A stretch of DNA of 64,000 bases from a virus. Location of the stretch: UHGV virus genome UHGV-0312576, one strand, 5' to 3'. A program made the position numbers and the translations under genes. Below are positions 2,264 through 57,736 of this stretch, one piece after another (within the stretch, counting starts at the first letter, position 1; every line of letters begins with the position of its first letter). Under the pieces are notes generated by a model. The model did no database searches. It was not told the origin of the DNA and saw only the letters and a program-made list of their open reading frames with translations.

Positions 2264-3031
2264 TCAGGTAGCGGCCATAATTTCATCAATTTGAGCATTC
2301 GTTATTGGAACCATGTCAGAATCTTGTATATAACCACTTAAATCAACGGCAGTATCACCGATTTTTTCAAAAGCTCCATTGGCATATATCCACTCCGTAT
2401 AGATATTGGCTGTTTCAGATGAAGTTTTTGGCACAAGATAGATTTTACCAACAGAACCCGTAACTGTTGGAACTCCATTGCTATTGTATTCTCCGGCTTT
2501 AAGAATGACAAATTCCATACTAGTGACATTGCCGATAGCAGTAGAAATAGCTGCACTTACTTGACTTTGTGTTTGAAACTTGCTATCATTTGACAATTCG
2601 CTTACCTTTGTAGGAACAGTAATGTTGACTTTTCGAGTTGTGGAGTCTACAGTTAGGTCAGCTCCATTCTTTTGAATTCCAACTACGGTATTTCTCTCTG
2701 CATTAGTAGGCGCATGAGCTGCTTGGCTATGAGTGTAAGCAGCATCGTATTTTGTCTGTTCCGCATCGGTTACAAAACGATGCTCAGTATCTTCGGTAAT
2801 CATTGATGCTGGATGATTATTTGGATGAGTGTAAATTGTATCTGTGAATTTGGCATTGGCAGGAACATCACTAGCAACAGTATGTCCGCCTACAGTGTCA
2901 GCGTTACCTCCATCAGCGGGTAGGGTAGTAGGAATATCAGTTTTAAGTGCAAATTTAGCGCTTACCCATGCTTGTATCTTTTGTTTCCAATAAAGTAGAC
3001 CATCATAATCTAAATAATTTTTAAGAGCCAT
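2264..3031 (-). CDS. tail fiber protein
   Basis: 255-aa Thr/Ser/Asn-rich protein typical of phage fibers, sitting in the distal tail gene block downstream of the RBP. Confidence 0.45.
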   Translation of the reverse strand: MALKNYLDYDGLLYWKQKIQAWVSAKFALKTDIPTTLPADGGNADTVGGHTVASDVPANAKFTDTIYTHPNNHPASMITEDTEHRFVTDAEQTKYDAAYTHSQAAHAPTNAERNTVVGIQKNGADLTVDSTTRKVNITVPTKVSELSNDSKFQTQSQVSAAISTAIGNVTSMEFVILKAGEYNSNGVPTVTGSVGKIYLVPKTSSETANIYTEWIYANGAFEKIGDTAVDLSGYIQDSDMVPITNAQIDEIMAAT

Positions 3032-3047
3032 TAGCTCCTCCTTTCAA

Positions 3048-3356
3048 TCAAAAATCATCTTGAAACATATTATCTATTTGAGAATTTGTTAATCGTGAAT
3101 ATTCCTCCTGTAGTGTATACCATTTCCCCTTAGACCACATCTTCTGTTCCATGGTGAATGAATTGAGATAGATTATATTTGGTATGGGTGAAACAGGGAA
3201 TTCATCAACTATGAGGATGTCACTTCCAAATTTATTACCTCTCGCAAACATCATTCCGTTTGTAAGTAAATAGATAGCATTGGGAATAATATTGTAAGGA
3301 TGGAGAGCTATGTAATCTTCATACGACATTCCAGTAATAATTTGTAAACCACTCAT
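3048..3356 (-). CDS. hypothetical tail-associated protein
   Basis: 102-aa ORF whose start overlaps (ATGA) the stop of the upstream gene; position only. Confidence 0.3.
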   Translation of the reverse strand: MSGLQIITGMSYEDYIALHPYNIIPNAIYLLTNGMMFARGNKFGSDILIVDEFPVSPIPNIIYLNSFTMEQKMWSKGKWYTLQEEYSRLTNSQIDNMFQDDF

Positions 3357-4063
3357 TCAGTATCCTCCATAGTTGTCCAAACAACATCTTCTGGCAAAAC
3401 CACAGTTCCAAGGCGTTCAGTCTTTTCTGAATTGGAATAAAAATGAACAGTGTGTCCATCAATGTCAATACACGATATTTTTGATTTTTCTAGTGTATCG
3501 AGTTTTTGAGCCATCTCAGTAAAGGGGTTGGTTGTCTCGTCAGGATCAATGAATGAATTAGTTGAAGATGTTTCCAGTACACTTAATGTAATATTGTTTG
3601 TGGGAAGATAATGAAAAAGTTTGTAAGAATCCTCATACGAGAAGATAAGGTTAATAGAAAGTGTACCTGAAAGTTTGGTGAAGGTTTTGGTTACTGGAAT
3701 ATGAGCCACTAAATATCTATCAAAATAGAGTGTATCTTCAAAATCAAGAAATGTAACTTTACCTTCCTGTCCGTTAGGAAGAGTGATGCAGAGCATACAG
3801 TTAAGTGATTTAGTATCAAATTCAAATAAGTCGTCTACAGAGACAAGAAATTTTATTGAATCAGCACGATTTTCATTCTGATAAATAGGAGAGGATAGGG
3901 TGCGTAGTAATACCCTATCTCTATATAGGATTGTATTCAATTTATCCTCCTCTGTTTGTGTTAAAAACGTAACAAATGTGCGCAATACAAAGACATAGCA
4001 CGTAGAAAATGTAAAATAATCCGCGAAGAGCGGACATAAAATCCGATGAAAGGCAGTTTTCAT
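3353..4063 (-). CDS. hypothetical tail-associated protein
   Basis: 236-aa ORF immediately left of the shufflon; its start codon abuts shufflon site F1. Confidence 0.35.
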   Translation of the reverse strand: MKTAFHRILCPLFADYFTFSTCYVFVLRTFVTFLTQTEEDKLNTILYRDRVLLRTLSSPIYQNENRADSIKFLVSVDDLFEFDTKSLNCMLCITLPNGQEGKVTFLDFEDTLYFDRYLVAHIPVTKTFTKLSGTLSINLIFSYEDSYKLFHYLPTNNITLSVLETSSTNSFIDPDETTNPFTEMAQKLDTLEKSKISCIDIDGHTVHFYSNSEKTERLGTVVLPEDVVWTTMEDTE

Positions 4064-4065
4064 TA

Positions 4066-4082
4066 GAAATGTAGCAATTTAG
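4066..4082 (+). repeat. shufflon recombination site F1 (GAAATGTAGCAATTTAG)
   Basis: Direct read; in-frame TAG stop immediately upstream. Confidence 0.75.
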
Positions 4083-4411
4083 ATATTACAAATCAGATAG
4101 CCGAGGTAGAAAATAGCAATGCCTATATACAGCAGTCAGGGAACGGAACCAGGTCAGTATACAAACATGGAAATTTGATACATTTAAGATTAGGAATCGT
4201 TGTAACGACGGGAACTACATCAACAGTAACCATTGCTAGAATTCCATATACATCAACTGACTCAACAAGTGTTTTAGTTCCTACATGGGCAACATATCAA
4301 TCACCCGCTTTCCTTACTGTGTCAGTAGATACCGGAGGAAATATAATAATACGTGGGACTCAGAGTGGAGTTTATGTTGCAGATTTAATATATTTTGCAT
4401 CAAATTTATAG
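4070..4411 (+). CDS. silent RBP C-terminal cassette F1 (CSNLDITNQIAEVEN...)
   Basis: Frame starting at the repeat codons TGT AGC AAT TTA stays open to the TAG at 4409-4411. Track ORF 4175..4411 is the tail of this frame. No start codon; a stop lies just upstream. Confidence 0.65.
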   Translation, partial: CSNLDITNQIAEVENSNAYIQQSGNGTRSVYKHGNLIHLRLGIVVTTGTTSTVTIARIPYTSTDSTSVLVPTWATYQSPAFLTVSVDTGGNIIIRGTQSGVYVADLIYFASNL

Positions 4412-4455
4412 GTAGGGTATGTGCTTACTTAATAGTAGGAACTAAAAAATCATTA

Positions 4456-4758
4456 TTACATGAATATAATTAAACCTCCATATGTACCGGCGTTATTATT
4501 AGCACTGTCCGAAACAAGATTATTCCCGGAAATACTACATTGCATTGCGCTTCCATTATTTCCGATTATGTATCTGCCAGCAGGGTTTTTGGGGGTGACC
4601 GGCAATGTGCAAATAATATCTCCGACAACGTATCCAGAGGAAGCTACAATAAGCACATCAAGTACGTATAACAATCCAAATTTATGCAGTGTTGTATAGC
4701 TGGTAAATTTGGGGCCAGGCGTAACTGCTAATAAAATATTCTTTTCTAAATTGCTAGA
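4456..4758 (-). CDS. silent RBP C-terminal cassette R0 (SSNLEKNILLAVTPGPKF...)
   Basis: Minus frame opens at the inverted repeat copy CTAAATTGCTAGA (4746-4758) and continues into track ORF 4456..4674. Confidence 0.55.
   Translation of the reverse strand, partial: SSNLEKNILLAVTPGPKFTSYTTLHKFGLLYVLDVLIVASSGYVVGDIICTLPVTPKNPAGRYIIGNNGSAMQCSISGNNLVSDSANNNAGTYGGLIIFM
4746..4758 (-). repeat. shufflon site R0 (variant TCTAGCAATTTAG on minus)
   Basis: Direct read; slightly divergent copy (TCT instead of TGT). Confidence 0.55.
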
Positions 4759-4813
4759 TTTTTAAAAGTTAATATATTATCATTTTTATTGTATTTTTAT
4801 TATATAGGAGACT

Positions 4814-4830
4814 ACGATATAGCAATTTAG
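4814..4830 (+). repeat. shufflon site F2 (CGATATAGCAATTTAG)
   Basis: Direct read. Confidence 0.7.
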
Positions 4831-5096
4831 CCGATAAGCTGCTTATAAAAAATGATGGTCTATGGTCAGGTAAAAACAACGCTGACGATTATAGAAACCA
4901 CAACATAATATTTTACTGTAATCCTGCACAGGGTAATCTAACCGCCTATAATTTCCCGGTAAATGAGACCGGTGTTTTTAAAAGCGTTGTGTGTAATCAA
5001 TTTTCCACGCAGACATACGTTACTATCAGTAACGCCCTATATCAGCGCATCGCTGCTGATAACTCATCGGCTTTTAGCGCATGGGAGCTTAAATGA
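4818..5096 (+). CDS. silent RBP C-terminal cassette F2 (YSNLADKLLIKNDGLWSGKNNADDY...)
   Basis: Open frame of 92 codons from TAT AGC AAT TTA to the TGA at 5094-5096. It contains no ATG and is absent from the ORF track. Confidence 0.6.
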   Translation, partial: YSNLADKLLIKNDGLWSGKNNADDYRNHNIIFYCNPAQGNLTAYNFPVNETGVFKSVVCNQFSTQTYVTISNALYQRIAADNSSAFSAWELK

Positions 5097-5099
5097 TTA

Positions 5100-5411
5100 T
5101 TAGCGGTAATAAACGGCAAAGCTGAAAGCTGATTTATTATCTGCTGCGTTTATAAAAACAGAATTTTTTGCAATTGTATTGGTGATGGCTATAACTATTT
5201 TTACATCCCAACCAGTTGCGTCACGACCACAACCAGTCATCCAATTACCAGTGTTTTTACCAATCTCTGCTTTTAATATATTGACACCACATGTATATGC
5301 GTAATCCGAAGTACGGTAAATCTTAATCATCAACTCATTATATTTTTCAGGTAACGGGCAAGTATCTGTGGCCTTGTATGTACCATTTAATTTCCATTCT
5401 AAATTGCTACT
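5100..5411 (-). CDS. silent RBP C-terminal cassette R1 (SSNLEWKLNGTYKATD...)
   Basis: Track ORF 5100..5432 contains SSNL encoded by the inverted repeat at 5399-5411. Confidence 0.65.
   Translation of the reverse strand, partial: SSNLEWKLNGTYKATDTCPLPEKYNELMIKIYRTSDYAYTCGVNILKAEIGKNTGNWMTGCGRDATGWDVKIVIAITNTIAKNSVFINAADNKSAFSFAVYYR
5399..5411 (-). repeat. shufflon site R1
   Basis: CTAAATTGCTACT read on the plus strand. Confidence 0.7.
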
Positions 5412-5453
5412 TCTTAGATTGTATCCGTTCATAAATATTCACTATTATTTTCA

Positions 5454-5470
5454 AAGATGTAGCAATTTAG
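5454..5470 (+). repeat. shufflon site F3 (AAGATGTAGCAATTTAG)
   Basis: Direct read. Confidence 0.75.
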
Positions 5471-5595
5471 CAACTAAAACTGTCGAAAATATGACCTTGA
5501 ATAAGCGCCTACGATTATATTGGGATGAAGAAAATAATCTAATACAGGTATATGTAGATAGTACGTACAAGGGTAATCTTAAATTCACTCCATAA
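5458..5595 (+). CDS. silent RBP C-terminal cassette F3 (CSNLATKTVENMTLNKRLRLYWDEENN...), short 45 aa
   Basis: In frame with track ORF 5368..5595. The portion upstream of the repeat is non-coding overlap. Confidence 0.55.
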   Translation, partial: CSNLATKTVENMTLNKRLRLYWDEENNLIQVYVDSTYKGNLKFTP

Positions 5596-5599
5596 TTAA

Positions 5600-5899
5600 T
5601 CATTTTGTGCTGAAAGCATACAGATTGGTAAGGATTGGAACCTGATTATCATAACCGACAAATTTTATGGCATCTCCCTTCCGCACCGCAAAGCAAACCG
5701 GCGCAAAAGAATTGGTTGCTGCATCATTATTGACCCAAAATATAGTTATGCTATTAACTGATACATAACATCCGTGGGCTGAACTATTAAAGCCTATGGA
5801 ACCACAGACTATACAATTTTCTGTGGCCGTCCAACTGGTTCCGTTAGCAAATCCATCTTTGATTTTTTTGCTGGTATCTATGTATGGTAAATTGCTACA
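5600..5899 (-). CDS. silent RBP C-terminal cassette R2 (CSNLPYIDTSKKIKDGF...)
   Basis: Track ORF 5600..5905, with CSNL encoded by the inverted repeat at 5888-5904. Confidence 0.65.
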   Translation of the reverse strand, partial: CSNLPYIDTSKKIKDGFANGTSWTATENCIVCGSIGFNSSAHGCYVSVNSITIFWVNNDAATNSFAPVCFAVRKGDAIKFVGYDNQVPILTNLYAFSTK

Positions 5900-5904
5900 T
5901 TTCA
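5888..5904 (-). repeat. shufflon site R2
   Basis: GTAAATTGCTACATTTC read on the plus strand. Confidence 0.7.
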
Positions 5905-5957
5905 ATATAGAGCTTCATAAATACACAATGAAGCTCTATATTTATTCATTATAGTCA

Positions 5958-6776
5958 TTATAATTTATTAAAGATTTTAATAGACAGAACTTCATCTTTT
6001 GTTAAAGCAGACATAATTGCTTCTTTAATTGTTTGCATTTCTTCATAGTATGGTTCTGTGTAGGCATAAACTGCAAGGGCAAGCGTTGAAAATTCCAAAA
6101 CAGACATTGGAGTACACTTAGTACCCTTACTATGCCACTTAACAATATCTTCAGCATTTGGATTTATTGCCTTATTAAGCTGATACGCCAGATACTGCTG
6201 AGACATCTCATCTCTATCAATTTTTGAAACTCCATAATATTTTCCATCTGTATATAAGAGCGGTTTCTTCTCTAAAAACGTTTCAAGGGACTCGCTGTTT
6301 TGCTTCTGGATAAATGTTTTTAATTCATCCAATGAACATTTGTCAATTTCAATTGTTGGATTAATCTGCTGATTAAGCTGCTCTACTATAACTTTAGTTG
6401 GATCTTCATATTTAAGAGTGATAGTGATAAGTTCAATCTCCTGTGGTTCATTGGTTGTGATTGTAGTTGTTGTATCTTGTCCGGATTCTCCGATGGAAGG
6501 TATTTCTTCTTGCTTTTCAACTGGAACAGTAATCTTTTCAATAGAACGACTCATTATATCTGTATAATTCTCGTAAGTAGTTACGTGTACAGCAGACGGA
6601 GTGGTTTTAATGATTCTCTTTAAATCGTCTTTTGTAAGATTATCAAATAGGCTGACGATATCAGAAAATAAATAATCGGATGGATTAATTCGTATCACAA
6701 GTGTTTGTGTCGATTTGTTTTCCAGGCTATCATAAATTTTTAAAACGTGATTGTTATTAAAAGTAATATTATACAT
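5958..6776 (-). CDS. hypothetical protein encoded between shufflon segments
   Basis: 272-aa ORF with a real ATG; acidic, Thr-rich internal linker; no repeat-derived SNL motif. Passenger gene in the spacer between sites R2 and F4. Confidence 0.45.
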   Translation of the reverse strand: MYNITFNNNHVLKIYDSLENKSTQTLVIRINPSDYLFSDIVSLFDNLTKDDLKRIIKTTPSAVHVTTYENYTDIMSRSIEKITVPVEKQEEIPSIGESGQDTTTTITTNEPQEIELITITLKYEDPTKVIVEQLNQQINPTIEIDKCSLDELKTFIQKQNSESLETFLEKKPLLYTDGKYYGVSKIDRDEMSQQYLAYQLNKAINPNAEDIVKWHSKGTKCTPMSVLEFSTLALAVYAYTEPYYEEMQTIKEAIMSALTKDEVLSIKIFNKL

Positions 6777-6866
6777 ATTATTTCCTTTCTTTCAAATGAA
6801 TTAATGTTTTAATTTGAAACTGCATGAATTAATGAATATTTATGTAGAGATAATTTCATTTATTTA

Positions 6867-6883
6867 GAAATGTAGCAATTTAG
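6867..6883 (+). repeat. shufflon site F4 (GAAATGTAGCAATTTAG, identical 17-mer to F1)
   Basis: Direct read; in-frame TAG immediately upstream. Confidence 0.75.
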
Positions 6884-7149
6884 GCGTACAAATCAGAAAA
6901 ATATCATCAAAGCTTTTTTCATGTGATGCTACCGTTGGTACGAAGGATAGTGTTAGTCAAACTTACTCCATTTCGGATTTGGGTTTTATTAAAACACCTT
7001 TATGGGCAGTACAGTCGTCAAATTGGTTGAATGCTCAGATAACCAATATAACAAAAGATTCCATATCTATAACCTTCTATAATCCATCAGAGCGTGGAAT
7101 TGCCGGGACTGCCGCATGGATACAGCTCATATTTTTGGAGCCCAAATGA
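6871..7149 (+). CDS. silent RBP C-terminal cassette F4 (CSNLGVQIRKISSKLFSCDATVGTKDS...)
   Basis: 92-codon open frame from the repeat to the TGA at 7147-7149; no ATG; not in the ORF track. Confidence 0.6.
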   Translation, partial: CSNLGVQIRKISSKLFSCDATVGTKDSVSQTYSISDLGFIKTPLWAVQSSNWLNAQITNITKDSISITFYNPSERGIAGTAAWIQLIFLEPK

Positions 7150-7365
7150 TTACTTGGTCCATATTGTTGAATCAGTTCCAGTTTTTCTGTTTCTCGATGT
7201 GTATGTAATGCTATCGTTAGAGAATGTAAGTAAACGTGACCATTCATCGCCAAAAACAAATTCCAATGTTATTCCCTGTAGGTCTTCATGTACAAAAAAT
7301 ATTATTTTTTGACACCTAGTGAATGAGAATGACCCAGTACCTAGTTTACTAACTAAATTGCTACA
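7150..7365 (-). CDS. silent RBP C-terminal cassette R3 (CSNLVSKLGTGSFSFTRCQKIIFFVHEDLQGITLEF...)
   Basis: Minus frame from the inverted repeat (7353-7369) to the stop at 7150-7152, directly abutting the F4 stop (TGATTA). Its 71-aa product is a near-identical paralogue of cassette F6. Track ORF 7077..7259 is a different, spurious frame. Confidence 0.6.
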   Translation of the reverse strand, partial: CSNLVSKLGTGSFSFTRCQKIIFFVHEDLQGITLEFVFGDEWSRLLTFSNDSITYTSRNRKTGTDSTIWTK

Positions 7366-7369
7366 CTGT
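7353..7369 (-). repeat. shufflon site R3
   Basis: CTAAATTGCTACACTGT read on the plus strand. Confidence 0.7.
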
Positions 7370-7416
7370 CTAATGCGATAAATTATATTTATACTTTACT
7401 ATGTATAAAGAATTGT

Positions 7417-7433
7417 ATGATATAGCAATTTAA
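7417..7433 (+). repeat. shufflon site F5 (ATGATATAGCAATTTAA)
   Basis: Direct read; slightly divergent last base. Confidence 0.65.
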
Positions 7434-7720
7434 TGAAATCGTATGATTTATTAATTAGTTCAACATCAACTACCGGAATCAATCAAGTGGTGGATGTGGA
7501 CAATTATCGTGAAATATTGCTATGTGCTACTCACAGTAGTAATGGTACAATATATAATGCAGCCATGATACCAATAGGATTATTTAAATCCACATCAGCA
7601 GGAAGCATGTTCAGATGCTCAGGAGGCTCGTTTTTCGCCCAATGTTATACTGCTAATGGTTCAATAACAGCTAGTGTTAGTGTGGACGGATATTGTGCAA
7701 AAATCTATGGTATCAAATGA
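7421..7720 (+). CDS. silent RBP C-terminal cassette F5 (YSNLMKSYDLLISSTSTTGINQ...)
   Basis: Track ORF 7433..7720 extended upstream in frame through TAT AGC AAT TTA. Confidence 0.6.
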   Translation, partial: YSNLMKSYDLLISSTSTTGINQVVDVDNYREILLCATHSSNGTIYNAAMIPIGLFKSTSAGSMFRCSGGSFFAQCYTANGSITASVSVDGYCAKIYGIK

Positions 7721-7980
7721 TTATTTTTAATAAGACATACTCTGCATGGACAATTTAAATTATTAGTATCAGCAGTATACATATAAACACCATCAATCTT
7801 CAGATATGTGTTGATATTAGAATTTTGATACTTATATGAGTCTCCTTGTTTAATCGCTGCAATTAAAGTACTATTGTTCCAAGTATACCCAGATGGAAAA
7901 CTACAGACCTTGACAGTTTGATTTGTTGTCGCTGGAGAGGTCGCATCTATAACAGTTATTAATCCAGCTAAATTGCTACA
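7705..7980 (-). CDS. silent RBP C-terminal cassette R4 (CSNLAGLITVIDATSPATTNQ...)
   Basis: Track ORF 7705..8004 with the CSNL junction at the inverted repeat 7968-7984. Its 3' end overlaps the 3' end of F5 convergently. Confidence 0.65.
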   Translation of the reverse strand, partial: CSNLAGLITVIDATSPATTNQTVKVCSFPSGYTWNNSTLIAAIKQGDSYKYQNSNINTYLKIDGVYMYTADTNNLNCPCRVCLIKNNHLIP

Positions 7981-7984
7981 TTTC
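7968..7984 (-). repeat. shufflon site R4
   Basis: CTAAATTGCTACATTTC read on the plus strand. Confidence 0.7.
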
Positions 7985-8033
7985 AGAATGTAATATACGA
8001 ACATATGAATATCTATAAATACTTATCGATTTT

Positions 8034-8050
8034 ACAATGTAGCAATTTAG
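8034..8050 (+). repeat. shufflon site F6 (ACAATGTAGCAATTTAG)
   Basis: Direct read. Confidence 0.75.
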
Positions 8051-8253
8051 TTAGTAAATTAGGTACTGGGTCATTTACGTTCACCCGGTGTCAGAAAATG
8101 ATAATCTTTGTAAACGAAAACCTCCAAGGGATAACACTGGAATTTATTTTTAACGAAGAATGGTCACGTTTACTTACATTCTCTAACGATAGAATAACAT
8201 ATGAATCCAGAGACAGAAAAACCGGAACAGATTCCGTAATATGGACAAAATGA
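8038..8253 (+). CDS. silent RBP C-terminal cassette F6 (CSNLVSKLGTGSFTFTRCQKMIIFVNENLQGITLEF...)
   Basis: Track ORF 8005..8253; 71-aa product paralogous to R3 (about 85 percent amino-acid identity by eye). Confidence 0.65.
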   Translation, partial: CSNLVSKLGTGSFTFTRCQKMIIFVNENLQGITLEFIFNEEWSRLLTFSNDRITYESRDRKTGTDSVIWTK

Positions 8254-8260
8254 TTATTTA

Positions 8261-8623
8261 TCAAAACACGATACTTCCCCTTACTTTAACCGCAGATTCC
8301 GGTATTGATGTCCCTTCCAACGTCAGTAGTTTTATTGTCCCATTTGACGATATTAATATCATAAGAAAGCGTTTTCCTGCAAAATCATATACATAGGCGC
8401 TGATATCCTGCTTTGGGGCATATTGACTGGATATGGTTCCAATGACGGAGTTAGAGATAGCCGATGTATAGACATATACCAGGGCAGAATACATACATTG
8501 TCCATTACTATATTTCGCCACATTATGATATCCGCCTGCGATATTTTCAGGTGCCGTTGAAACACCTGTAATATTGGGAATATTATAGGTCCCGATAATA
8601 TTCTTGTTCGATAAATTGCTACA
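8261..8623 (-). CDS. silent RBP C-terminal cassette R5 (CSNLSNKNIIGTYNIPNITGVS...)
   Basis: Track ORF 8261..8659 with the CSNL junction at the inverted repeat 8611-8627. Confidence 0.65.
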   Translation of the reverse strand, partial: CSNLSNKNIIGTYNIPNITGVSTAPENIAGGYHNVAKYSNGQCMYSALVYVYTSAISNSVIGTISSQYAPKQDISAYVYDFAGKRFLMILISSNGTIKLLTLEGTSIPESAVKVRGSIVF

Positions 8624-8627
8624 TCTA
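8611..8627 (-). repeat. shufflon site R5
   Basis: ATAAATTGCTACATCTA read on the plus strand. Confidence 0.65.
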
Positions 8628-8739
8628 ATAAAAATTTGCGACAAAAATAAATCTGTCATGCTATAAATTTTATAATTATTCTTGATTTATACATTATTTT
8701 AGGTATTACATTATGTTGTTTTATATGAAGTTTGGGATT

Positions 8740-9735
8740 TTATAAAGATGCTTTTCTGAATCCGGATTTGATTCTTTCTGAAGATGTCTTTGCATAGATA
8801 CGCGTAGTTTCGATTTTTGTATGACCCAATAAGTCCTGCACAACATCGATATCTGTATGTTCTAATAGATGGCTGGCAGTAGTATGTCTAATTATATGGG
8901 GTGTTACAGGCCTTCCTATTCCAGCACGTATGCCAAGCTCCTTTATTCTATTTTCAAGAGAGCACTTACCCAATGATTTATGACTCTTATTTTCACTTAC
9001 AAATACGCCGGGACTATCATCCTCTCTTTTATCGAGATATAACTTTAAACTTAAATGCGCTCGCGGTGTAAGTAGAACAAATCGTTCCTTATCCCCCTTT
9101 CCACATACTTTGATTTGTTCCCTATCGAAATCAATATCATCTATTCTCATATTTGCAACTTCGCTAACTCGACAGCCTGTACTATAAAATATTTCAAATA
9201 AAGCCTCATCAAAGTCTGTTTTACACGCTCGCCGCATTAATTCAACTTCCATATGCGACAATGGTTCTCGAACTTTTTGTTTATATTTAATTGGCTCAAC
9301 AGCAGCGGCGGGATTTTCTTTAATATAACCATTTTGATGAAGAAATTGATAGAAACTACAGATTATAAGGCGCTTTGAATCTTTGGTACGATCTGAAATA
9401 TTATTGATTTTTGCGTATTCGTTGAGAAATATACGTATATCATCCGAAACGACATCTTTAACGTCTTTATCCAGCCACGCTACAAATGCGTTTAGTAGAT
9501 ATCTATATTGGCGTATTGTATCTTCAGATAAGCCCCGGAATTCTTTCCTTAGTATAAAAGCGTCTAATTCAGGACATCGTTTGATCGTTTGTATCGCTAT
9601 TTCGGTACACATTCGCTGAATTTGATAACTTCGCATTACGTAGCTTATTGCCTGGTCTACCATCATCAGCATCTCACTATTAAATGTTTCATTGTTTTGT
9701 AACTGCATAATAACTTCGTTCTTAAATTCTTCCAT
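8740..9735 (-). CDS. tyrosine site-specific recombinase (XerC/XerD-like), candidate shufflon invertase
   Basis: 331 aa; N-terminal SAM-like core-binding region; catalytic-domain residues visible (GCRVSEV Arg, HIIRHTTASHLL His-x-x-Arg, LLGHTKIETTRIYAKT His and Tyr). Encoded inside the site array. Confidence 0.85.
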   Translation of the reverse strand: MEEFKNEVIMQLQNNETFNSEMLMMVDQAISYVMRSYQIQRMCTEIAIQTIKRCPELDAFILRKEFRGLSEDTIRQYRYLLNAFVAWLDKDVKDVVSDDIRIFLNEYAKINNISDRTKDSKRLIICSFYQFLHQNGYIKENPAAAVEPIKYKQKVREPLSHMEVELMRRACKTDFDEALFEIFYSTGCRVSEVANMRIDDIDFDREQIKVCGKGDKERFVLLTPRAHLSLKLYLDKREDDSPGVFVSENKSHKSLGKCSLENRIKELGIRAGIGRPVTPHIIRHTTASHLLEHTDIDVVQDLLGHTKIETTRIYAKTSSERIKSGFRKASL

Positions 9736-10018
9736 ATAATTCCATCCTCCTGATTTTTGTTGCGCAAAAGGAGGCTGTCTAGTATAATAATTATAGACAG
9801 CGCTTTTGCGTTGTGGTGAGAGAGTAGATCTATGCTTTGCGAGGGCGGTGATTTACTCTCTTTTCTGTTACTATATCATAATAACAGAACACATGTTCTT
9901 TTGCAAGGGATAGAGGGGGTGCGAAAAAAGTCTTTATATATAGCAAGATGTGCTTGAACAATAAACTATTAGAATAATTAGCTGAAAATATTTTGGGAGT
10001 ATTGACATCTATTTTTAT

Positions 10019-10035
10019 ACTAAATAGCAATTTAG
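10019..10035 (+). repeat. shufflon site F7 (ACTAAATAGCAATTTAG)
   Basis: Direct read; exact inverted copy of site R6. Confidence 0.75.
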
Positions 10036-10367
10036 CATCTATTGGGACAGGAACCCAGCTTGCTACTTTATCCATGAATAATAAGTCAATAACAGGGATT
10101 TCGTTTAATGGTTATAAAACTGTCGAAATCATGGTAATTATACAGCAAGCGAGTAATGGTAATATGTTTTTTAATTTTACCCTTGTGCCATTAGTAAGTC
10201 ATATTTTAGACGGAGCACGGTACATAACAATACCAGGTAAATCATACGGATATTGCGCAAACGTTTTGCTATCCATAAATTACTCAGCTGGCACAGTAAC
10301 ATTGATAGAAGCTGATGTCAATGAGGGATTTGGGCTTAATTCAATCTACATTTTGGGACTTAAATAA
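10023..10367 (+). CDS. silent RBP C-terminal cassette F7 (NSNLASIGTGTQLATLSMNNKS...)
   Basis: Track ORF 9993..10367; NSNL encoded by the repeat. Confidence 0.65.
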   Translation, partial: NSNLASIGTGTQLATLSMNNKSITGISFNGYKTVEIMVIIQQASNGNMFFNFTLVPLVSHILDGARYITIPGKSYGYCANVLLSINYSAGTVTLIEADVNEGFGLNSIYILGLK

Positions 10368-10380
10368 TCATCTTAACTGC

Positions 10381-11205
10381 TTAACTGCTAGGAGAACCTA
10401 TTGTTGTCCATCCGCTCCAAACGCCCTCTCTCTGATGCCTGGTAAATAGGTGCGAATCTCCTACAGCCATTGCCAACTGACATAGCCATTGCTCACCGCT
10501 ACTGTATGTGATACAAAAGCCATTACCATAAACAGTATTACCTGTTTTAAACGGGGTATCCGCTGTGTTGACGTCCCACAACACTAGGTTAACCTTATTT
10601 AATACATTTACATTTATATGGCTAACGTAGTTGGACTTAAGTGGGTTAATATCATCACTGATATTACCTAAATTGCTATTTAGTTCACGAATGCTGGTAG
10701 AATTATTATCTGTCTTTTCATTGACTTTTCTGACAGCATTAGCTGTGGCCCATAACTCTGTCGAAGTTGAATCGACGCCATCGTATTTATCTGTTTTACT
10801 TAATTTTGTATTGACAAGTATTTGAAGTCCTTGAGCTACTGTTTTTGCATCTGTATTACCGAATAGGTTTGTAACTGATTTTACATTTCCAACTAAGTTC
10901 TCAAGATATGTAAACTTTTTTTTGATTTTTCCGAAAAACACCTTAACTGTTTCACCAGCGGATAAAACCGGGTTTTCATCGGAATCGGTTGGGATGGTAG
11001 ACACCTTCATCTCATCAGCATTTTCACCATCTATGGCAATGGGTAGGCTTTTGGCAGCAGTGATACCATCACCGAATTTTAATTGGCATTTCCCCTTTCC
11101 GCTTCCAGAATCTGGTGTCACTACTAATACTTCATCTTTTTCGAGTACTTTGGTTGACGCATTAGCAACAGATTTAGTTGCTCGTTTTAATTTTATTGTA
11201 TCCAT
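10381..11205 (-). CDS. receptor-binding protein (RBP) with shufflon-switchable C-terminal head domain; currently expressed form
   Basis: 274 aa with a strong RBS (GGAGGA). The constant N-terminal part is 10685..11205 (about 174 aa). The junction ELNSNLG is encoded by the inverted repeat at 10668-10684. The variable head (about 96 aa) runs 10381..10667. Confidence 0.75.
   Translation of the reverse strand: MDTIKLKRATKSVANASTKVLEKDEVLVVTPDSGSGKGKCQLKFGDGITAAKSLPIAIDGENADEMKVSTIPTDSDENPVLSAGETVKVFFGKIKKKFTYLENLVGNVKSVTNLFGNTDAKTVAQGLQILVNTKLSKTDKYDGVDSTSTELWATANAVRKVNEKTDNNSTSIRELNSNLGNISDDINPLKSNYVSHINVNVLNKVNLVLWDVNTADTPFKTGNTVYGNGFCITYSSGEQWLCQLAMAVGDSHLFTRHQREGVWSGWTTIGSPSS
10668..10684 (-). 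repeat. shufflon site R6 (active junction inside the RBP gene)
   Basis: CTAAATTGCTATTTAGT on the plus strand. Its reverse complement, ACTAAATAGCAATTTAG, is identical to F7. Confidence 0.75.
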
Positions 11206-11226
11206 TAACTTCCTCCTTCCATATAA

Positions 11227-12213
11227 TTACAATGAACCACCATCAAATACATTTTCAGCAGGTGTGGTATCAGTAAGCTCACCTCCATCAATAGTCCTAA
11301 GCCTGAATTCAAAATCCTTAAGTGCCATATCAACGCGGTCACCTTGGTTCTGTGCATATGCCCCCTTAGATTGTGCTTCAGTAGCCGCAGTATTGGCATT
11401 GTCACGGGCAGTATTAGCTTCAGCAGTGGCCACGTTTGTATCAGCAGTTGCTTTCTCACAGTTGGCGATTGCTTTAGCCGTATCGGTTTGCCGTTTATTC
11501 TCATTGGTGATTCTGGTGTTCTCTGCAACCTGGGCAGATGTGTACCAAGTGGTTATGGAGCTTTTGAGATTTGAGATTTCAATTTTTAAAGAGTTGAATT
11601 CAGATTTATAAGTTGTGATATCATTGTTGATTTGCTGTATAAGCGCATTGAAGTCATTTGTATATTTAGTTTTCATAGTTGAAAACTGATTTGTATAATC
11701 TGATATGTCAGTTTGAATTTGTTCAATTAAAGCGTTTATCTGTTCCTGAGATAAATTAAATTGCTTAATTAAATCAGGAATTACATTGGCCTGTAAAATT
11801 AAATCATTCAAAATATTAAATTCGGATGACGCAACTAATCTATCTTGATTGAGTAGAGATTTGCTTACAGTCATTTGGAATGTGAATGTAGTTGAAACAG
11901 TGATACCATCAGAATCATATATTCTAATCTCACAACTTACATCACCTTCACGAGACAGCATAGATTCATCAAATACAACATATGGAAAACCATCTTCTCT
12001 AAAATTACAGGTGGTATTAGAATAGTTGTCTCCGTTAATATAAAGAGATAAAGCAATAAGTTCTTTTCCTGAATAAGACAATGGGATATTATTATCAGTG
12101 ATAATCAGTCGTCTTACTCGCGAATTATGATCATACTGTTTAGCTTGTAAGTATCTAAATGACTGTTCGTGGGATATATCTATCCTAAAATCCTCTGGCT
12201 GAGTTTGTGCCAT
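11227..12213 (-). CDS. baseplate upper protein (BppU)-like tail protein
   Basis: 328 aa; N-terminal globular region, central Asn/Gln-rich coiled coil; C-terminal IDGGELTDTTPAENVFDGGSL motif shared with ORF 1582..2250. Sits immediately upstream of the RBP. Confidence 0.45.
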   Translation of the reverse strand: MAQTQPEDFRIDISHEQSFRYLQAKQYDHNSRVRRLIITDNNIPLSYSGKELIALSLYINGDNYSNTTCNFREDGFPYVVFDESMLSREGDVSCEIRIYDSDGITVSTTFTFQMTVSKSLLNQDRLVASSEFNILNDLILQANVIPDLIKQFNLSQEQINALIEQIQTDISDYTNQFSTMKTKYTNDFNALIQQINNDITTYKSEFNSLKIEISNLKSSITTWYTSAQVAENTRITNENKRQTDTAKAIANCEKATADTNVATAEANTARDNANTAATEAQSKGAYAQNQGDRVDMALKDFEFRLRTIDGGELTDTTPAENVFDGGSL

Positions 12214-12245
12214 TTAGCCCTCCTTTCACAAAATTAAAAAACTAC

Positions 12246-12668
12246 CTACTCAGAGAGTAGATAGTCAATTGCAAAAATATCATCTTCGTTGTCAAGATTG
12301 AAGTTTCCTGAATTATTGATAACATCTAGCGATAATTTATATGGAGCGATATCATCACATGGCATCTTCATCAACTCATCCATGTCTTTCTGAAAATCCT
12401 CGTTACATATACCAGGTTTAAGATTGAATTGAATCGTGCCATTTTTATCAAGTATATAGTAACTACCTTCCGGGGCAACTTCATTTTTTACCTTGTTGCA
12501 ATACTTTTCAAAAATTTCTTCTCGTTTCTGAATGAAAAAATTATATGAATCAGCATATAATTTTATATTTCTCATAACCCAATAATCAATTTTAAAACTT
12601 GGCTTTTTGTTTTTGATTTGCTGTAAAACCGGAATTGCTCCAGCTACTTTACCTAATGTAATATCCAA
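12246..12668 (-). CDS. hypothetical tail module protein
   Basis: 140-aa ORF; position only. Confidence 0.3.
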   Translation of the reverse strand: MDITLGKVAGAIPVLQQIKNKKPSFKIDYWVMRNIKLYADSYNFFIQKREEIFEKYCNKVKNEVAPEGSYYILDKNGTIQFNLKPGICNEDFQKDMDELMKMPCDDIAPYKLSLDVINNSGNFNLDNEDDIFAIDYLLSE

Positions 12669-12681
12669 ATATGTACCTCCT

Positions 12682-15498
12682 TTAAGTGTTTGGTAAGCGA
12701 TTAAATAGATAATCTAAAGCACTAAATATCGTATATCCACTCCACCAGTTACTTCCTATAAGTGTGGCGTCGCCATTTATTTTATTTGTTATAATTGTTT
12801 GAGCGTGTGTTTCTCCGGAACCATTAACTACTAAAACACCTCCAAAACTACACCAAGCTTGTCCTGAGCCTGAAGCAGATGCATTCCAATAATTGTTATT
12901 ACTGGTCCCAATCCAACCGCGGTCTGCTGTGGTTATCATCCATCTGCCTAGATATAGAGTGTCGGAATCTGCATCCAACGCACCAACACTAATAGCACCA
13001 CCCGTAATGATAGTACCTGATATTTGAGAACCAGTTATCTTAGATGCATTTATGTTTCCTGTAAAATTAGCTGATTTTGCTGTCAATACTCCTTGTGAAT
13101 TTACCTCAAAGTTGTTTCCTATTTTTAAACTACCGCCTGTTATAATGGCATTAGAACAGGTCAGGGCTCCCGTATTTGTTACTCTAAATGGAGCATTATT
13201 CCTGTCAGTATTACCCGCCCAGTATGCAATAGCACCAGATGTCTTATCAGAACATAAACCGATATTGCCTGATATCAATGTATTTGTAGATATGGTAAAG
13301 TCTGCGATTTGCCCAGATTTAGAGATAAGTTTACCTTCAAATGTTAATGCTTTGGCAGTGGTATCAACGTATAGGAGTTTCTTGTGGTCAATAGAAATCG
13401 AGAAGATGTTATCTGGCGTATCCGGATTGATTTTTACTTCATAGGAGCCTTTCTTTGCAATGAAGCCATCTTTGTCTATGGTATAGGAACCGGATACATT
13501 AGAGACTATGAGTTTTTCAGACATTAAAAGTTTACCAACAATTGATGGGGCGCACAATCCAAAAAAGTAGTCATTGCCCATTTTTACATATCCAAGAGCA
13601 ATACCAACAGAGTTGAAGCTGTCTTGGGAAATAGCTATTTGGTTATTGGTTATCCATATTTGCCCTGGGTCGTATATTTGTTGTTCTGACAACCACCTTC
13701 GGCATAGAATACCCGTAGAATCAATAAGAATCTCATTATTGTCATTACTAACAAGCTGCTGTTTGCTGGCGTTCAGAATGTCATTCATATATTTATTGAC
13801 ATCCACAGAAACAATAGCAGCATTTTTCCATGCGCCAACGGCATATTCGGTTTTAGATGAAACATCTTCAACTTGTTTTCTCACCTTTTCAATGAGTGCC
13901 CAGGTTTCTTTAAGCGAGTTACGATTACTGAACGTCACCTTAAAATCAGATGGATCATCCCAATTAATATGAAGTTTTAGAAGCCTTGCTGATATTATGG
14001 AATCGTGATCCTCGAAATTTATATGGATGATGTTGAACATCTCAAGTGCATTGGTAAAACGTTTATAATCGTAATCAACGGTGAAATTAATCAAATCAAC
14101 ATCTAAGGTAAACTGAGGATAACATACTCTTGACAATTCAGAACGGCCATGTTCTAGTAATGCTTGTTGCATTTCAAGAATTTCGCTATCTGTCATTGAG
14201 TTTGTAACGATAAAAGAATCATCAGTTAAGGTGTCTTCGCGGATATATGGCCCGAGTTCCTTATATAATTCTTCTCCGAGTACATTTGGCAGACTTACAA
14301 CCAAAGTGCCAATTTCACTGATCAAATTATTGATCTCAACTTCTTTATTGTTTATTTGTTGTTCTCGAACTTTTATTTCGGCTTCAATAGCAGCATGGAT
14401 AGCAGCATTTTTCTGATATTGTTCAGATTCATCTTCCCCGAGATATAAAGACATGTTTGTTTTATAGATTATTTCTTTTTCCTGAAGCTCTCGTAAACCA
14501 AATAAAGTCCAATCGGTAGAAGATTCTCCTTCATCAGGAACCTTATTTTTTAATGTATTCAGTTCATCGTAGTGGGAGAGGAGTGTTGACATTTTCTCTT
14601 GATACGCAGATTCGTTTTCCTTACATAATTCGTCATAATGAGCCAATCCAGCTTGCAGCTCCGGACTCATCATGTGAAGAAAATAGCTGAAATCATATAT
14701 CTGATTTGTGCCTGAAATATTTACGTCAAGAATTCCAAGTGGTGTATTGGTCCGCTCATCATTACCGCCGACTACTGTCAGCACAGTTTTGATATCATCT
14801 TCTGTGCTATTCATCGTTATGCTTTTTATCACATTGCGATAATTTAAGATAATGCCTGTATCTTTTCCAAGGTTTTCGAGTTTATAAGCTGAAATACTGC
14901 GCTCATAAGAATCAAATAAAAATACACACTCATATGTTTCAGAAACTTTTCCAGTAAGAAACGAGTATGTATCTACACTGTCCTCTTGAAAACTCCTATA
15001 TTCAGTTGAAATTTGGGGATCTATATATCGGATTGACCATCCAGGATTCTTTTCTAGAACAATATGCATAATCGAATGTGATGCGTCTAAAGGATTATAT
15101 AAGCAATACCGATCCAGGCCACCTTGCTCATCCTCATCAATTCCTAGAGAACCAAAGGAAGTAAGGTCCGTTTGCCCTAGTTCACATTCAATAGATAAAT
15201 ATGTTATTTCTTTGTACTCGTTGATTCCTTCATCCACTACAGATACATCACCAACTCTGAACCACCCAACGCCATAGAGATGAATATATTTTCCGTTCTC
15301 AATTTGCTCATAGAATCTTGTTTCTTCCCCATCTTCATATCGGTACACTGTAAAGGTACCTTTGTTGGCTGAGTTTGCCATTATATCCGTTTGGAGATCG
15401 TAAGTATGAAGAGCACCAATCGTTCGTTTATCAGGATAAGCCAAGTATACCTCTGGCCGATTGAGATTTTTGTAATAATTATATGTAAAAATCCCCAT
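12682..15498 (-). CDS. tail-associated protein (Tal-like / phage minor structural protein)
   Basis: 938 aa; sits after the Dit-like gene; C-terminal Gly/Ser/Thr-rich beta-helix-like repeats (TGSQISGTIITGGAISVG...). Confidence 0.5.
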   Translation of the reverse strand: MGIFTYNYYKNLNRPEVYLAYPDKRTIGALHTYDLQTDIMANSANKGTFTVYRYEDGEETRFYEQIENGKYIHLYGVGWFRVGDVSVVDEGINEYKEITYLSIECELGQTDLTSFGSLGIDEDEQGGLDRYCLYNPLDASHSIMHIVLEKNPGWSIRYIDPQISTEYRSFQEDSVDTYSFLTGKVSETYECVFLFDSYERSISAYKLENLGKDTGIILNYRNVIKSITMNSTEDDIKTVLTVVGGNDERTNTPLGILDVNISGTNQIYDFSYFLHMMSPELQAGLAHYDELCKENESAYQEKMSTLLSHYDELNTLKNKVPDEGESSTDWTLFGLRELQEKEIIYKTNMSLYLGEDESEQYQKNAAIHAAIEAEIKVREQQINNKEVEINNLISEIGTLVVSLPNVLGEELYKELGPYIREDTLTDDSFIVTNSMTDSEILEMQQALLEHGRSELSRVCYPQFTLDVDLINFTVDYDYKRFTNALEMFNIIHINFEDHDSIISARLLKLHINWDDPSDFKVTFSNRNSLKETWALIEKVRKQVEDVSSKTEYAVGAWKNAAIVSVDVNKYMNDILNASKQQLVSNDNNEILIDSTGILCRRWLSEQQIYDPGQIWITNNQIAISQDSFNSVGIALGYVKMGNDYFFGLCAPSIVGKLLMSEKLIVSNVSGSYTIDKDGFIAKKGSYEVKINPDTPDNIFSISIDHKKLLYVDTTAKALTFEGKLISKSGQIADFTISTNTLISGNIGLCSDKTSGAIAYWAGNTDRNNAPFRVTNTGALTCSNAIITGGSLKIGNNFEVNSQGVLTAKSANFTGNINASKITGSQISGTIITGGAISVGALDADSDTLYLGRWMITTADRGWIGTSNNNYWNASASGSGQAWCSFGGVLVVNGSGETHAQTIITNKINGDATLIGSNWWSGYTIFSALDYLFNRLPNT

Positions 15499-22419: not shown

Positions 22420-22501
22420 ATTTTTTAGATTGCCTAGATCTTTAAGATGCGTTATAATAATTGTAATTGTATTTACAAATATAAATAGGAGTTTGTGGAT
22501 T

Positions 22502-22855
22502 ATGACGAAACAAGAAGCAAATGATATTTTTGACTCTAAGGGTGAGGATGCGTTAGATAAATTATTGGATTATATTTTAGTTGAACAAAACTACAACAAA
22601 GCAACAAAATTCATCATGGAAACAGTAGGGTGCGACGAAACCACAGCAAAAGCAATGGTATTAGAAACAATCCCCACTAACACAGAACAACGGCCAATAC
22701 AGCAACAAAATATCCCTAAATGTCCAACCTGCAACTCAACTAACATAGAGAAAATAGGCGGACTAGAACGAGGAGCATCCATAGTGATGTGGGGATTATT
22801 TAGCAAAAAGATTAATAAAACTTTCAAATGTAAAAATTGTGGACATACGTGGTAA
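22502..22855 (+). CDS. zinc-ribbon protein
   Basis: Start at MTKQEAN, with a good RBS (AGGAG). C-terminal CPTC...CKNC zinc ribbon. The track ORF start at 22247 is a spurious 5' extension overlapping the TMP. Confidence 0.45.
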   Translation: MTKQEANDIFDSKGEDALDKLLDYILVEQNYNKATKFIMETVGCDETTAKAMVLETIPTNTEQRPIQQQNIPKCPTCNSTNIEKIGGLERGASIVMWGLFSKKINKTFKCKNCGHTW

Positions 22856-22985
22856 AGTTATAACCAATTTTTATCCTTTTCAATTTTTCTTTTGCACAAG
22901 AAGATTGTAATAGATATCCATATTTTAATATATAAAGTTTTAAATTTTACAATAATTTTAATCACATCCTTTAGGAGAAAATATT

Positions 22986-23840: not shown

Positions 23841-23911
23841 AACTGTAGGGAGTCTTTGCTGTAGGAAAGATTATATGCAAAGAATAAACTTAAGGTTAAG
23901 GAGATATAAAA

Positions 23912-50774: not shown

Positions 50775-50850
50775 ACACGCCCCGCAGGATTCGAACCTGC
50801 ATAAACTCGATTAAAAGTCTAGTGCCATACCATTAGGCGACAGACCCATG
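50775..50850 (-). other. tRNA-Lys(UUU)-like element with non-pairing acceptor stem (candidate attP core or tRNA remnant)
   Basis: On the minus strand: D-arm with GG; anticodon stem CUAGA/UCGAG with loop CUUUUAA; perfect T-arm GCAGG-UUCGAAU-CCUGC. The 5' end GGGUCUG cannot pair with the 3' end GGGGCGU. Confidence 0.35.
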
Positions 50851-57569: not shown

Positions 57570-57644
57570 TACAGGAAATGGAATTCGAACCCATAGATCA
57601 CAGAGATTTTGAAACTCCGGCATATGCCATTCTGCTATTCCTGT
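57570..57644 (-). tRNA. tRNA, type I, anticodon loop UUCAAAA (CAA as read); identity uncertain
   Basis: Perfect acceptor ACAGGAA/UUCCUGU; T-arm AUGGG-UUCGAAU-UCCAU; the anticodon stem has a U-U mismatch next to the loop. Confidence 0.5.
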
Positions 57645-57648
57645 ATAA

Positions 57649-57732: not shown

Positions 57733-57736
57733 TTAG

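Follow-up and report, generated by a model that had tools for sequence, protein, structure and literature searches.

Judged by its architecture, the closest known system to the locus described here, an array of short inverted repeats at the gene of a putative receptor-binding protein (RBP) in UHGV virus genome UHGV-0312576, would be the Rin shufflon of Bifidobacterium breve and Bifidobacterium longum prophages (Mavrich et al. 2018, PMC6109161), reported also in Eggerthella lenta prophages (PMC8778435). The whole stretch that was analysed, 64,000 nucleotides (nt) long, is termed the window. The likeness covers all architectural features compared, the recombinases being likened by type alone. 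Like the window system, Rin relies on a phage-encoded, Xer-like tyrosine recombinase without an arm-binding domain. Its rix site is a short asymmetric repeat of ~11 bp at the start of each variable cassette, and the window core measures 10-11 bp and occurs in both orientations. The constant N-terminus of the RBP comprises 168 amino acids (aa) in Rin and 179 aa in the window, the Rin C-termini adding ~95-100 aa. In both cases activity was inferred from inversions between related genomes with breakpoints at the repeats. The enzyme's choice of site and the directionality of armless Xer-like recombinases were left open in the Rin paper (PMC6109161). The two systems differ in core sequence (TTCCCTAACCC in Rin, TAGCAATTTA in the window), in host (Actinobacteria versus Lachnospiraceae), in the number of heads (5 versus 14, with at least 43 across the window lineage) and in the position of the recombinase gene, which flanks the array in Rin and lies within an invertible unit in the window. 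Two site classes, and a core common to unrelated phages, are features of the window that have not been described for Rin. Bifidobacterium was not listed in the organism summary of 400 phage-record matches.

In the R64/IncI1 shufflon, studied by Komano and colleagues, the Rci tyrosine recombinase acts at sfx sites in pilV; multiple inversions among tail-to-tail cassette pairs exchange the C-terminus of the adhesin at an in-frame repeat. The sfx site is 19 bp long (a 7-bp spacer plus a 12-bp arm) with a variable second arm, and rci lies outside the invertible DNA. Like sfx, the 12 window sites other than the two 17-mers around the expressed head (the reservoir sites) are asymmetric, keep the core and the G at position +11 and have a left flank of low information, whereas the conserved site is 10-11 bp instead of 19 bp. 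The target in the window is a phage tail-module gene, accompanied by genes for a tape-measure protein (TMP), Tal and a BppU_N protein, as opposed to the conjugative thin-pilus adhesin gene pilV. Rci is also longer and carries a C-terminal extension, while the 331-aa window enzyme has ~58 extra aa at its N-terminus and aligns with XerA/XerD up to residue 331. No Rci-specific model matched the window recombinase, the presence of such a model in NCBIfam being unconfirmed. Membership in the Rci/sfx group was rejected, since both enzyme organisation and target differ.

Inversion also switches tail-fibre C-termini, and with them host range, in the Gin (Mu), Cin (P1), Pin (e14) and Min (p15B) systems, the last of which is a multi-segment shufflon (PMC6109161). 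These are serine invertases that act on 26-bp sites with a 2-bp crossover and a Fis-dependent enhancer, unlike the tyrosine enzyme and 10-bp asymmetric core of the window; membership was rejected because the recombinase of the locus belongs to PF00589 and no serine recombinase was found among 10 candidate ORFs elsewhere in the window. A tail-fibre shufflon of BV01-like Phocaeicola vulgatus phages, all configurations of which were seen in reads (2026 preprint, PMC13596623), shares with the window a directional 10-bp motif, a recombinase at the locus (adjacent to the array in that case) and several cassettes at the 3' end of the tail-fibre gene. It has three cassettes and six variants, the motif TGGGAGAACT with 14-18-bp extensions, and a Bacteroidota host.

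No published description of such a system in Enterocloster or other Lachnospiraceae was found in an incomplete literature search. The window locus is notable for its unusual size, the location of the recombinase in invertible DNA, the two site classes, a natural core variant with a matching recombinase, and a probable transfer of heads from phage to phage. The heads of RBPs determine the range of bacteria that a phage infects. A prophage with 14 interchangeable heads, drawing on a population pool of more than 40, would have a compact means of altering its host range within an abundant gut genus. The full and half sites, along with the one-base core variant and its matching recombinase, provide a ready series for studying site choice and directionality of armless Xer-like enzymes.

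The slot-1 site pair and its natural isomers

The array extends over positions 4072-10684 of the window, and a pair of inverted 17-mers forms its slot 1. We consider it very probable that these 17-mers bound slot 1 of a 14-site RBP-head shufflon that is run by the recombinase embedded in the array and belongs to the tail module of a siphophage or prophage of Enterocloster. The features of slot 1 are as follows:

10668..10684, minus strand: R7 (named R6 in the sequence-only reading), the expression site; 17-mer inside the RBP gene, encoding (E)LNSNL, which joins the constant region to the resident head
10019..10035, plus strand: F7, the partner site; inverted copy of the 17-mer, with a non-coding left flank and then the recombinase leader
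10036..10667: invertible segment 1, consisting of two convergent head cassettes
10381..10667, minus strand: R7c, the expressed head; 95 aa after NSNL (GNISDDINPLKSNY...) and a stop
10036..10367, plus strand: F7c, a silent head; 110 aa after NSNL (ASIGTGTQLATLSMNNKS...) and a stop

The 17-mer ACTAAATAGCAATTTAG occurs at 10019-10035 on the plus strand and as its exact reverse complement at 10668-10684 on the minus strand, with 632 nt between the arms. The sequence-only reading, made before any database search, had described inverted 17-bp repeats around the expressed head and its closest silent neighbour, and this description is upheld: the copies are exact and enclose a 632-bp segment with the expressed head and a convergent silent head. 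At up to three mismatches the 17-mer has seven matches in the window compared with 0.72 expected, a number reached in none of 100 shuffles. Its 10-bp core, TAGCAATTTA, is present in 14 copies in the 64 kb, seven per strand, all within 4072-10678 (0.48 expected from base composition). Each of the 14 cores opens a stop-terminated cassette of 41-116 codons and encodes xSNL, in frame, at the cassette start; the 10-mer is invariant in 14 of 14 copies with zero synonymous variation. The minus-strand 17-mer lies in frame within a 274-aa open reading frame (ORF; 10381-11205, minus strand) and encodes E-L-N-S-N-L. The cassettes are paired convergently into seven cassette units. Between these are scaffold units that end in the 5' flanks of the sites, and the scaffold unit between 8621 and 10025 holds the 331-aa tyrosine recombinase. 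When the constant region was fused in silico to the other heads, all 13 fusions were open.

In the proposed mechanism, the 331-aa recombinase would recombine any two oppositely oriented TAGCAATTTA cores, the core being situated at the xSNL junction between the constant 179 residues and a head of ~41-116 residues. Inversion between sites that face each other would flip cassettes, and inversion between sites that face apart would flip scaffold units, the one with the recombinase gene among them. Any of the 14 heads could reach 10668-10684 through one or two inversions, with a resulting change in the receptor specificity of the virion. The strand exchanges would likely flank TAGCAA.

Recombination activity was judged from natural isomers in public assemblies, in which the sites were mapped by left flank plus cassette (related loci are designated by L numbers and public proteins by P numbers). 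In L024, a human-gut metagenome contig, all blocks are 99.8-100% identical to the window, and segment 1 (window 10025-10679) and segment 3 (7422-7978) are swapped, each of them inverted; F5c is the expressed head there. The arrangement is the product of two nested inversions, R7 with F5 and F7 with R5, in which R7 and F7 each crossed with a reservoir site. Another permutation of 100%-identical blocks is found in L008/L009, with R7 as a crossover partner in the rearrangement between the window and L008. In L024, L008 and L007, slot 3 contains segment 1 in inverted orientation and 100% identical to the window. In L015 the recombinase unit is on the opposite strand, and the F7 flank lies with the recombinase. 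This flank, TTATACTAAA, stays fixed while the adjoining cassette varies (R1c, R5c, R3c, n5 and others), and the left flank of R7, GTGAACTAAA, is joined to seven different heads in related loci. Across the related contigs, the left flanks follow a fixed scaffold order and the cassettes are permuted among them.

The use of both 17-mers in the L024 and L008 isomers bears out the earlier proposal that they are crossover sites of a head-changing tyrosine-recombinase inversion system. The designation of slot 1 as the "active junction" can be retained insofar as both sites are used in natural isomers; this activity is not unique to them, since all 14 sites take part.

More distant relatives in IMG/VR (L001-L003) carry a six-site array, a recombinase 95% identical to that of the window and ~85% nucleotide identity to it. 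Among these, L001 and L003 are 100% identical to L002 over ~16.8 kb save for one segment of 573 bp, flanked by two sites, which is inverted. The two orientations of a two-site switch are represented by L043 and L044. Recombination between direct sites also occurs, as indicated by a deletion and a duplication. L007 (10528-15377) has lost the recombinase unit and one cassette pair, precisely the stretch that the direct repeats F7 and F6 bound, and is most simply read as a locked derivative that arose by precise site-specific deletion. L011 (12585-14451) has 16 sites, owing to the duplication of a cassette pair and of the F6/R5 scaffold unit of 71 bp.

A protein search identified many public proteins that share residues 1-179 of the window RBP at 100% identity and have different C-termini. 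Exact fusions of the constant region to nine silent heads (F1c, F2c, F3c, R3c, F4c, R4c, F5c, R5c and R6c) occur in public assemblies, and several constant-region/silent-head fusions come from NCBI genomes named Enterocloster bolteae. The reservoir sites, with their heads and the corresponding public chimeras, and one further ORF of the array are:

4072..4082, plus strand: F1 (GAAATG followed by TAGCAATTTAG); head F1c at 4083-4411; the fusion is P0020, in 26 contigs including NCBI Enterocloster bolteae
4746..4756, minus strand: R1; head R1c at 4456-4745; in the slot-1 partner position of L006 and L008-L010
4820..4830, plus strand: F2; head F2c at 4831-5096; exact public chimera P0121
5399..5409, minus strand: R2; head R2c at 5100-5398; chimera P0022 is one residue off
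5460..5470, plus strand: F3; head F3c at 5471-5595, 41 aa; exact chimera P0122, in 13 contigs
5887..5897, minus strand: R3 (+11 is C); head R3c at 5600-5886; exact chimera P0128, in 15 contigs
5958..6776, minus strand: 272-aa ORF, in the scaffold unit between F4 and R3
6873..6883, plus strand: F4; head F4c at 6884-7149; exact chimera P0143, in 24 contigs
7353..7363, minus strand: R4; head R4c at 7150-7352; exact chimera P0147
7423..7433, plus strand: F5 (+11 is A); head F5c at 7434-7720; chimera P0018, in 49 contigs including NCBI E. bolteae
7968..7978, minus strand: R5; head R5c at 7705-7967; chimera P0015; crossed with F7 in the difference between the window and L024
8040..8050, plus strand: F6; head F6c at 8051-8253, a near-duplicate of R4c
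8611..8621, minus strand: R6 (+11 is T); head R6c at 8261-8610; exact chimera P0123

The 272-aa ORF occupies the same position in all of the related arrays examined (L001-L003, L005-L011 and L046). It gave a weak, sub-cutoff match to DUF4376 (E = 0.0018) and no PHROG or NCBIfam match, and could be a chaperone or an accessory baseplate protein. R4c and F6c form an inverted repeat of 231 nt with 83% identity (7144-7374 and 8029-8259), the sole cassette pair similar enough for homologous recombination. The F3c head, only 41 aa past the junction, occupies the expression slot of L023 and L027 and may represent a minimal or "headless" RBP variant. The 3' ends of F5c and R5c overlap by 16 nt (7705-7720), and the members of the remaining cassette pairs are 0-13 nt apart. 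No terminator-like hairpin was found between the two heads of segment 1.

Exchange point, site classes and the recombinase

Examination of the isomers places the exchange point within the core. Position -1 (A, G or C) always remains with the scaffold flank, whereas position +11 travels with the cassette; it is mostly G, with A in F5c, T in R6c and C in R3c. A cassette with the core TAGCAATTTT retains its T at +10 in two different slots. Because -1 stays and +10 and +11 travel, both strand exchanges fall within +1..+9 (TAGCAATTT). The overlap of tyrosine recombinases is usually 6-8 bp, and one of 4 bp would be unusually short; the enzyme reads the arms of its site, and the overlap need only match between the partners. 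An overlap of 8 bp is unlikely in the present case, as position -1 differs between site classes that recombine. Most likely the overlap comprises the 6 bp TAGCAA (+1..+6) on the dyad axis, with CTAAA and TTTAG as arms, although this fits the data as well as, and no better than, the 4-bp AGCA; 7 bp is a further candidate length. The earlier assignment of AGCA as the centre is therefore consistent with an exchange confined to +1..+9, but TAGCAA fits equally and 4 bp would be uncommon. The arms are presumably binding sites.

The inner 16-mer, CTAAATAGCAATTTAG, mismatches its own reverse complement at two positions only, the two A's of AGCA, so that the description of symmetric arms around an asymmetric AGCA centre is correct as a fact of sequence. 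Among the 14 sites, whose alignment had been suggested for defining arms and spacer, the slot-1 pair has both arms; the 12 reservoir sites lack the left arm and have xATG in its place, while core and right arm are kept. The site common to the 14 copies is thus the 10-mer plus a frequent G, an asymmetric core of 10-11 bp. Since the reservoir sites recombine with the slot-1 sites, the full dyad is not required, and recombination between full and half sites is indeed seen in L024 and L015. Full and half sites may possibly set two different switching rates.

Flanks were collected from an IMG/VR scan for convergent core pairs (gap 470-500 nt) and from the loci already found, and were classed as expression flanks (with a long upstream ORF), native partners of the expression site, or reservoir flanks. 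Among 29 distinct left flanks, only A at -3 (26 of 29), G or A at -1 (27 of 29, never T) and T at -9 stand out; among 43 distinct cassette starts, no signal is evident beyond +11. The mean match to ACTAAA, over its six positions, is 4.5 for expression flanks (n=11), ~4.3 for native partner flanks (n=9) and 2.15 for reservoir flanks (n=20). AAA occupies -3..-1 in seven of eight partner-flank families but in two of 20 reservoir flanks, among which xATG is the prevailing sequence. Because partner flanks do not encode protein, the conservation of AAA acts at the DNA level. The slot-1 dyad AAAT-AGCA-ATTT is kept in several other phage lineages.

The core itself drifts along with the recombinase. 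Recombinases at least 95% identical to that of the window (L001-L003) pair with the core TAGCAATTTA. L046, whose recombinase is 78% identical and whose gene order is the same, has a 14-site shufflon (8221-14937) in which all 14 cores read TAGTAATTTA, with the centre AGTA. In addition, one lone TAGCAATTTA, which may be a relic, is located at 8852 (plus strand) between slot 1 and the recombinase of L046. L047, again with the same gene order and with a recombinase 69% identical, has the core TAGTAATTTA in three identified sites; its slot-1 pair keeps the AAA arm, in CTACACTAAA followed by TAGTAATTTA and in GCGAAA followed by TAGTAATTT. That the arms are kept while the centre drifts in concert with the enzyme supports the architecture of arms and overlap for the two slot-1 sites, with position +4 inside the overlap. 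The sequence-only reading of the 17-mer as a tyrosine-recombinase site made of arms and an asymmetric centre gains from the conservation of the slot-1 arms across lineages and from the AGCA-to-AGTA change, which tracks the recombinase clade; it has to be amended in that a full dyad is not required. A 40%-identical homologue (L049), with the same gene order after an RBP-like gene, is accompanied by the unrelated repeat ACTAACGGTCTG, i.e., ACTAACGG(T/C)CTG, at 7964, 8218 and 8640 (plus strand) and 10610 (minus strand). RBP shufflons may accordingly form a wider family whose members each use a different core. L004, a high-GC phage with a 34%-identical recombinase, was dropped from the comparison, having no such repeats.

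The recombinase and its leader are located as follows:

8740..9735, minus strand: Xer-like tyrosine recombinase, 331 aa, inside the shufflon between R6 and F7
9736..9906, minus strand: recombinase leader; a promoter-like TTGCAA-17-TGxTATTAT lies at 9906..9878, and a stable hairpin (z = -3.9) immediately precedes the Shine-Dalgarno sequence

The protein contains PF00589 (1.4e-34) and SAM-like core-binding N-terminal domains, with no arm-binding domain. It scored 225.9 bits against the NCBIfam model XerA_Arch (cutoff 220), and its best PDB matches are XerA (4a8e) and XerD (1a0p), in alignments that span residues 57-331. The catalytic set is complete (R in GCRVSE, K in GKGDKER, HxxR in HIIRHT, H in LLGH and Y in RIYAK). 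Homologues are encoded at the same position in L001-L003, L005-L016, L022-L027 and L046-L047. From its position and its co-variation with the core, we infer that the 331-aa enzyme is the invertase; none of the 10 other recombinase-sized ORFs in the window matches a serine recombinase family. The leader inverts together with the recombinase unit. It is nearly invariant between the window and the 85%-identical L001, whereas the DNA just upstream of it diverges. The 3' arm of its hairpin, CCUCCUUUUGC, is complementary to the downstream Shine-Dalgarno AGGAGG, and the hairpin may for this reason regulate recombinase expression. At the gathering threshold, Rfam identified tRNAs only, and none of its families in the leader.

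Alternative explanations and the predicted isomer

One alternative is a dedicated two-site switch, in which the 17-bp pair would be self-contained and recombine with no other site, and the 12 shorter sites would make up a reservoir that is separate or inactive. It would account for the full 17-bp identity and the symmetric left arm, which only the slot-1 pair possesses, and for the simple pairs of AAA followed by TAGCAATTTA in many other phages, one of which has been seen in both orientations. However, in L024, L008/L009, L007 and L015 it is with reservoir sites that segment 1 or the F7 flank has recombined, in DNA that is 99-100% identical; nine reservoir heads are exactly fused to the constant region, and a simple flip of segment 1 appears in no assembly of the window lineage. 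We regard such a switch as very improbable. Homologous recombination or gene conversion between similar cassettes is harder still to credit. The R4c/F6c inverted repeat could support RecA-dependent inversion, but the remaining heads are unrelated in sequence, and every breakpoint lies inside one 10-bp core, which is too short for RecA; moreover, the flanks at -1 and at +10/+11 segregate cleanly and the core co-varies with the recombinase. The chance that the xSNL motif is a static coding feature of paralogous heads, with no recombination at all, is close to negligible: the core is in frame and specifies S-N-L in every cassette, as this explanation would have it, yet the 10-mer shows no synonymous variation among its copies, it is kept beside non-coding partner flanks, and isomers exist.

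The identity of the enzyme raises a different alternative, namely that another recombinase acts in trans (from the host, a co-resident prophage or as a serine invertase) and the embedded Xer-like gene is otherwise employed. The same-core switches of L017-L019, which have no recombinase nearby, would be explained in this manner, as would the array of L007, shuffled although its recombinase unit is deleted. L007 is, however, read as a locked derivative. Homologues at the same position throughout the family, the one-base core change that accompanies recombinase divergence, and the lack of a serine recombinase among the 10 candidate ORFs elsewhere in the window all speak for the embedded enzyme, and we judge action in trans to be very improbable.

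A shufflon of RBP heads operated by the embedded recombinase therefore remains our preferred interpretation, against which the following points weigh. The case for activity is built on isomers from independent assemblies, and long-range chimeras can arise when metagenomes are assembled; the junctions exceed the 10-17-bp repeat, so that spanning sequence must support each of them. The enzyme is assigned by position and co-variation, L017-L019 are two-site switches with the same core and no adjacent recombinase, for which action in trans is possible, and the proposed overlap length and left-arm function derive from the comparison of sites. The "receptor-binding" label is based on gene context: Pfam searches with 10 of the window heads returned sub-threshold noise only, and the AlphaFold2 model of the RBP is poor (18-row alignment; mean pLDDT 41.5, pTM 0.23), suggesting at most that long helices precede the junction and that the head is rich in beta structure.

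The isomer predicted for slot 1 belongs among these points as well. A single inversion of 10036..10667 had been expected to replace the current head with F7c, and in silico this yields an intact ORF of 289 aa with the junction ...RELNSNL-ASIGTGTQLATLSMNNKS...; the product was not found in public data. An exact look-up of the 289-aa protein in a collection of 15 billion proteins gave no matches, a homology query made up of the junction and the F7c sequence retrieved F7c only as silent ORFs or on the N-termini of other phages, and the junction of the R7 flank with F7c had no matches in JGI metagenome contigs. A control scan of the same contigs with the R7 flank and core identified six loci with five other heads. 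As only ~7 contigs carry the window's own configuration, the absence of the predicted isomer is weak evidence. F7c is expressed in frame elsewhere, in 203-aa RBPs of another phage (P0157, P0160 and P0162; also P0168), where it follows ...ANSNL.

Head modules in other phages, the tail module and neighbouring genes

The identical core occurs in many unrelated phages of several other lineages. Segment 1, including its sites, recurs at 99.55% identity (3 mismatches over 671 bp) in L020/L021. The phage in question is unrelated, with unrelated upstream fibre genes and a Peptidase_S74 fibre, and the homology ends at the sites. The expressed head R7c has xSNL fusions with six or more unrelated N-termini (P0104, P0105, P0110, P0112, P0114 and P0117), and 19 loci of the window lineage contain 43 distinct cassette starts. 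The shared segment 1, the shared heads and this diversity of cassettes point to, without proving, an exchange of head modules between phages at the sites. The precise deletion between direct sites in L007 indicates that excised circles can form. We tentatively suggest, at somewhat less than an even chance, that the core is a docking site common to unrelated Enterocloster and other Lachnospiraceae phages, among which whole head modules would move by recombinase-mediated cassette exchange as an integron-like pool spanning the community. If true, inter-phage head exchange would explain the mosaic RBPs of gut Firmicute phages, and the core, a minimal 10-bp recombination system of natural origin, could serve to engineer phage host range.

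The prophage represented by L017-L019 has its two sites at 10270 and 10883 in L017 and expresses an F7-like head; a holin/endolysin module follows, and then host genes. The sole recombinase seen is the prophage integrase, in L019, and an invertase provided in trans may be needed to operate the switch.

The constant part of the RBP and the gene directly upstream of it are:

10669..11205, minus strand: constant N-terminal part of the RBP, residues 1-179, ending ...IRELNSNL
11227..12213, minus strand: BppU_N-domain baseplate protein (PF10651, 3.1e-08, above cutoff), with PHROG tail and tail-fibre matches

Further upstream on the same strand are genes for a 140-aa protein, a 938-aa Prophage_tail/Tal protein (12682-15498) and a 1529-aa ORF of tape-measure size. 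The order TMP, Tal, BppU_N and the 274-aa gene is that of the baseplate genes of a Gram-positive siphophage and puts the 274-aa protein in the RBP position. Some alternative heads in this RBP family are H-type lectin domains (PF09458). Gene order and lectin heads together argue that the 274-aa protein is the RBP and that its heads set the receptor. The host was assigned to Enterocloster from the source names of P0018, P0020 and P0067. A megablast of positions 3000-13000 against GenBank phages gave no match. A genome-contig scan with the constant region found no relatives, and with the recombinase it returned only matches of ~30% identity in unrelated metagenome-assembled genomes.

Several other genes of the window and its relatives may be mentioned. 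Four tRNA genes (50784-50838 and 57570-57818, minus strand), three of them tightly clustered, are located in the apparent replication/early region of this large phage genome. An opposite-strand gene island just past the tape-measure gene (22247-24610, plus strand) includes a YbjQ_1 protein, putatively heavy-metal-binding, at 23912-24610; the island looks like a moron. In the related loci, an Abi_alpha (abortive-infection) gene is present on the opposite strand in L005 (20828-20867), L007 (18893-19660) and L046 (1363-2154). Its neighbour is a choline-binding lysis-module protein in L005 and L007, and in L046 it lies between a choline-binding protein and the tail genes.

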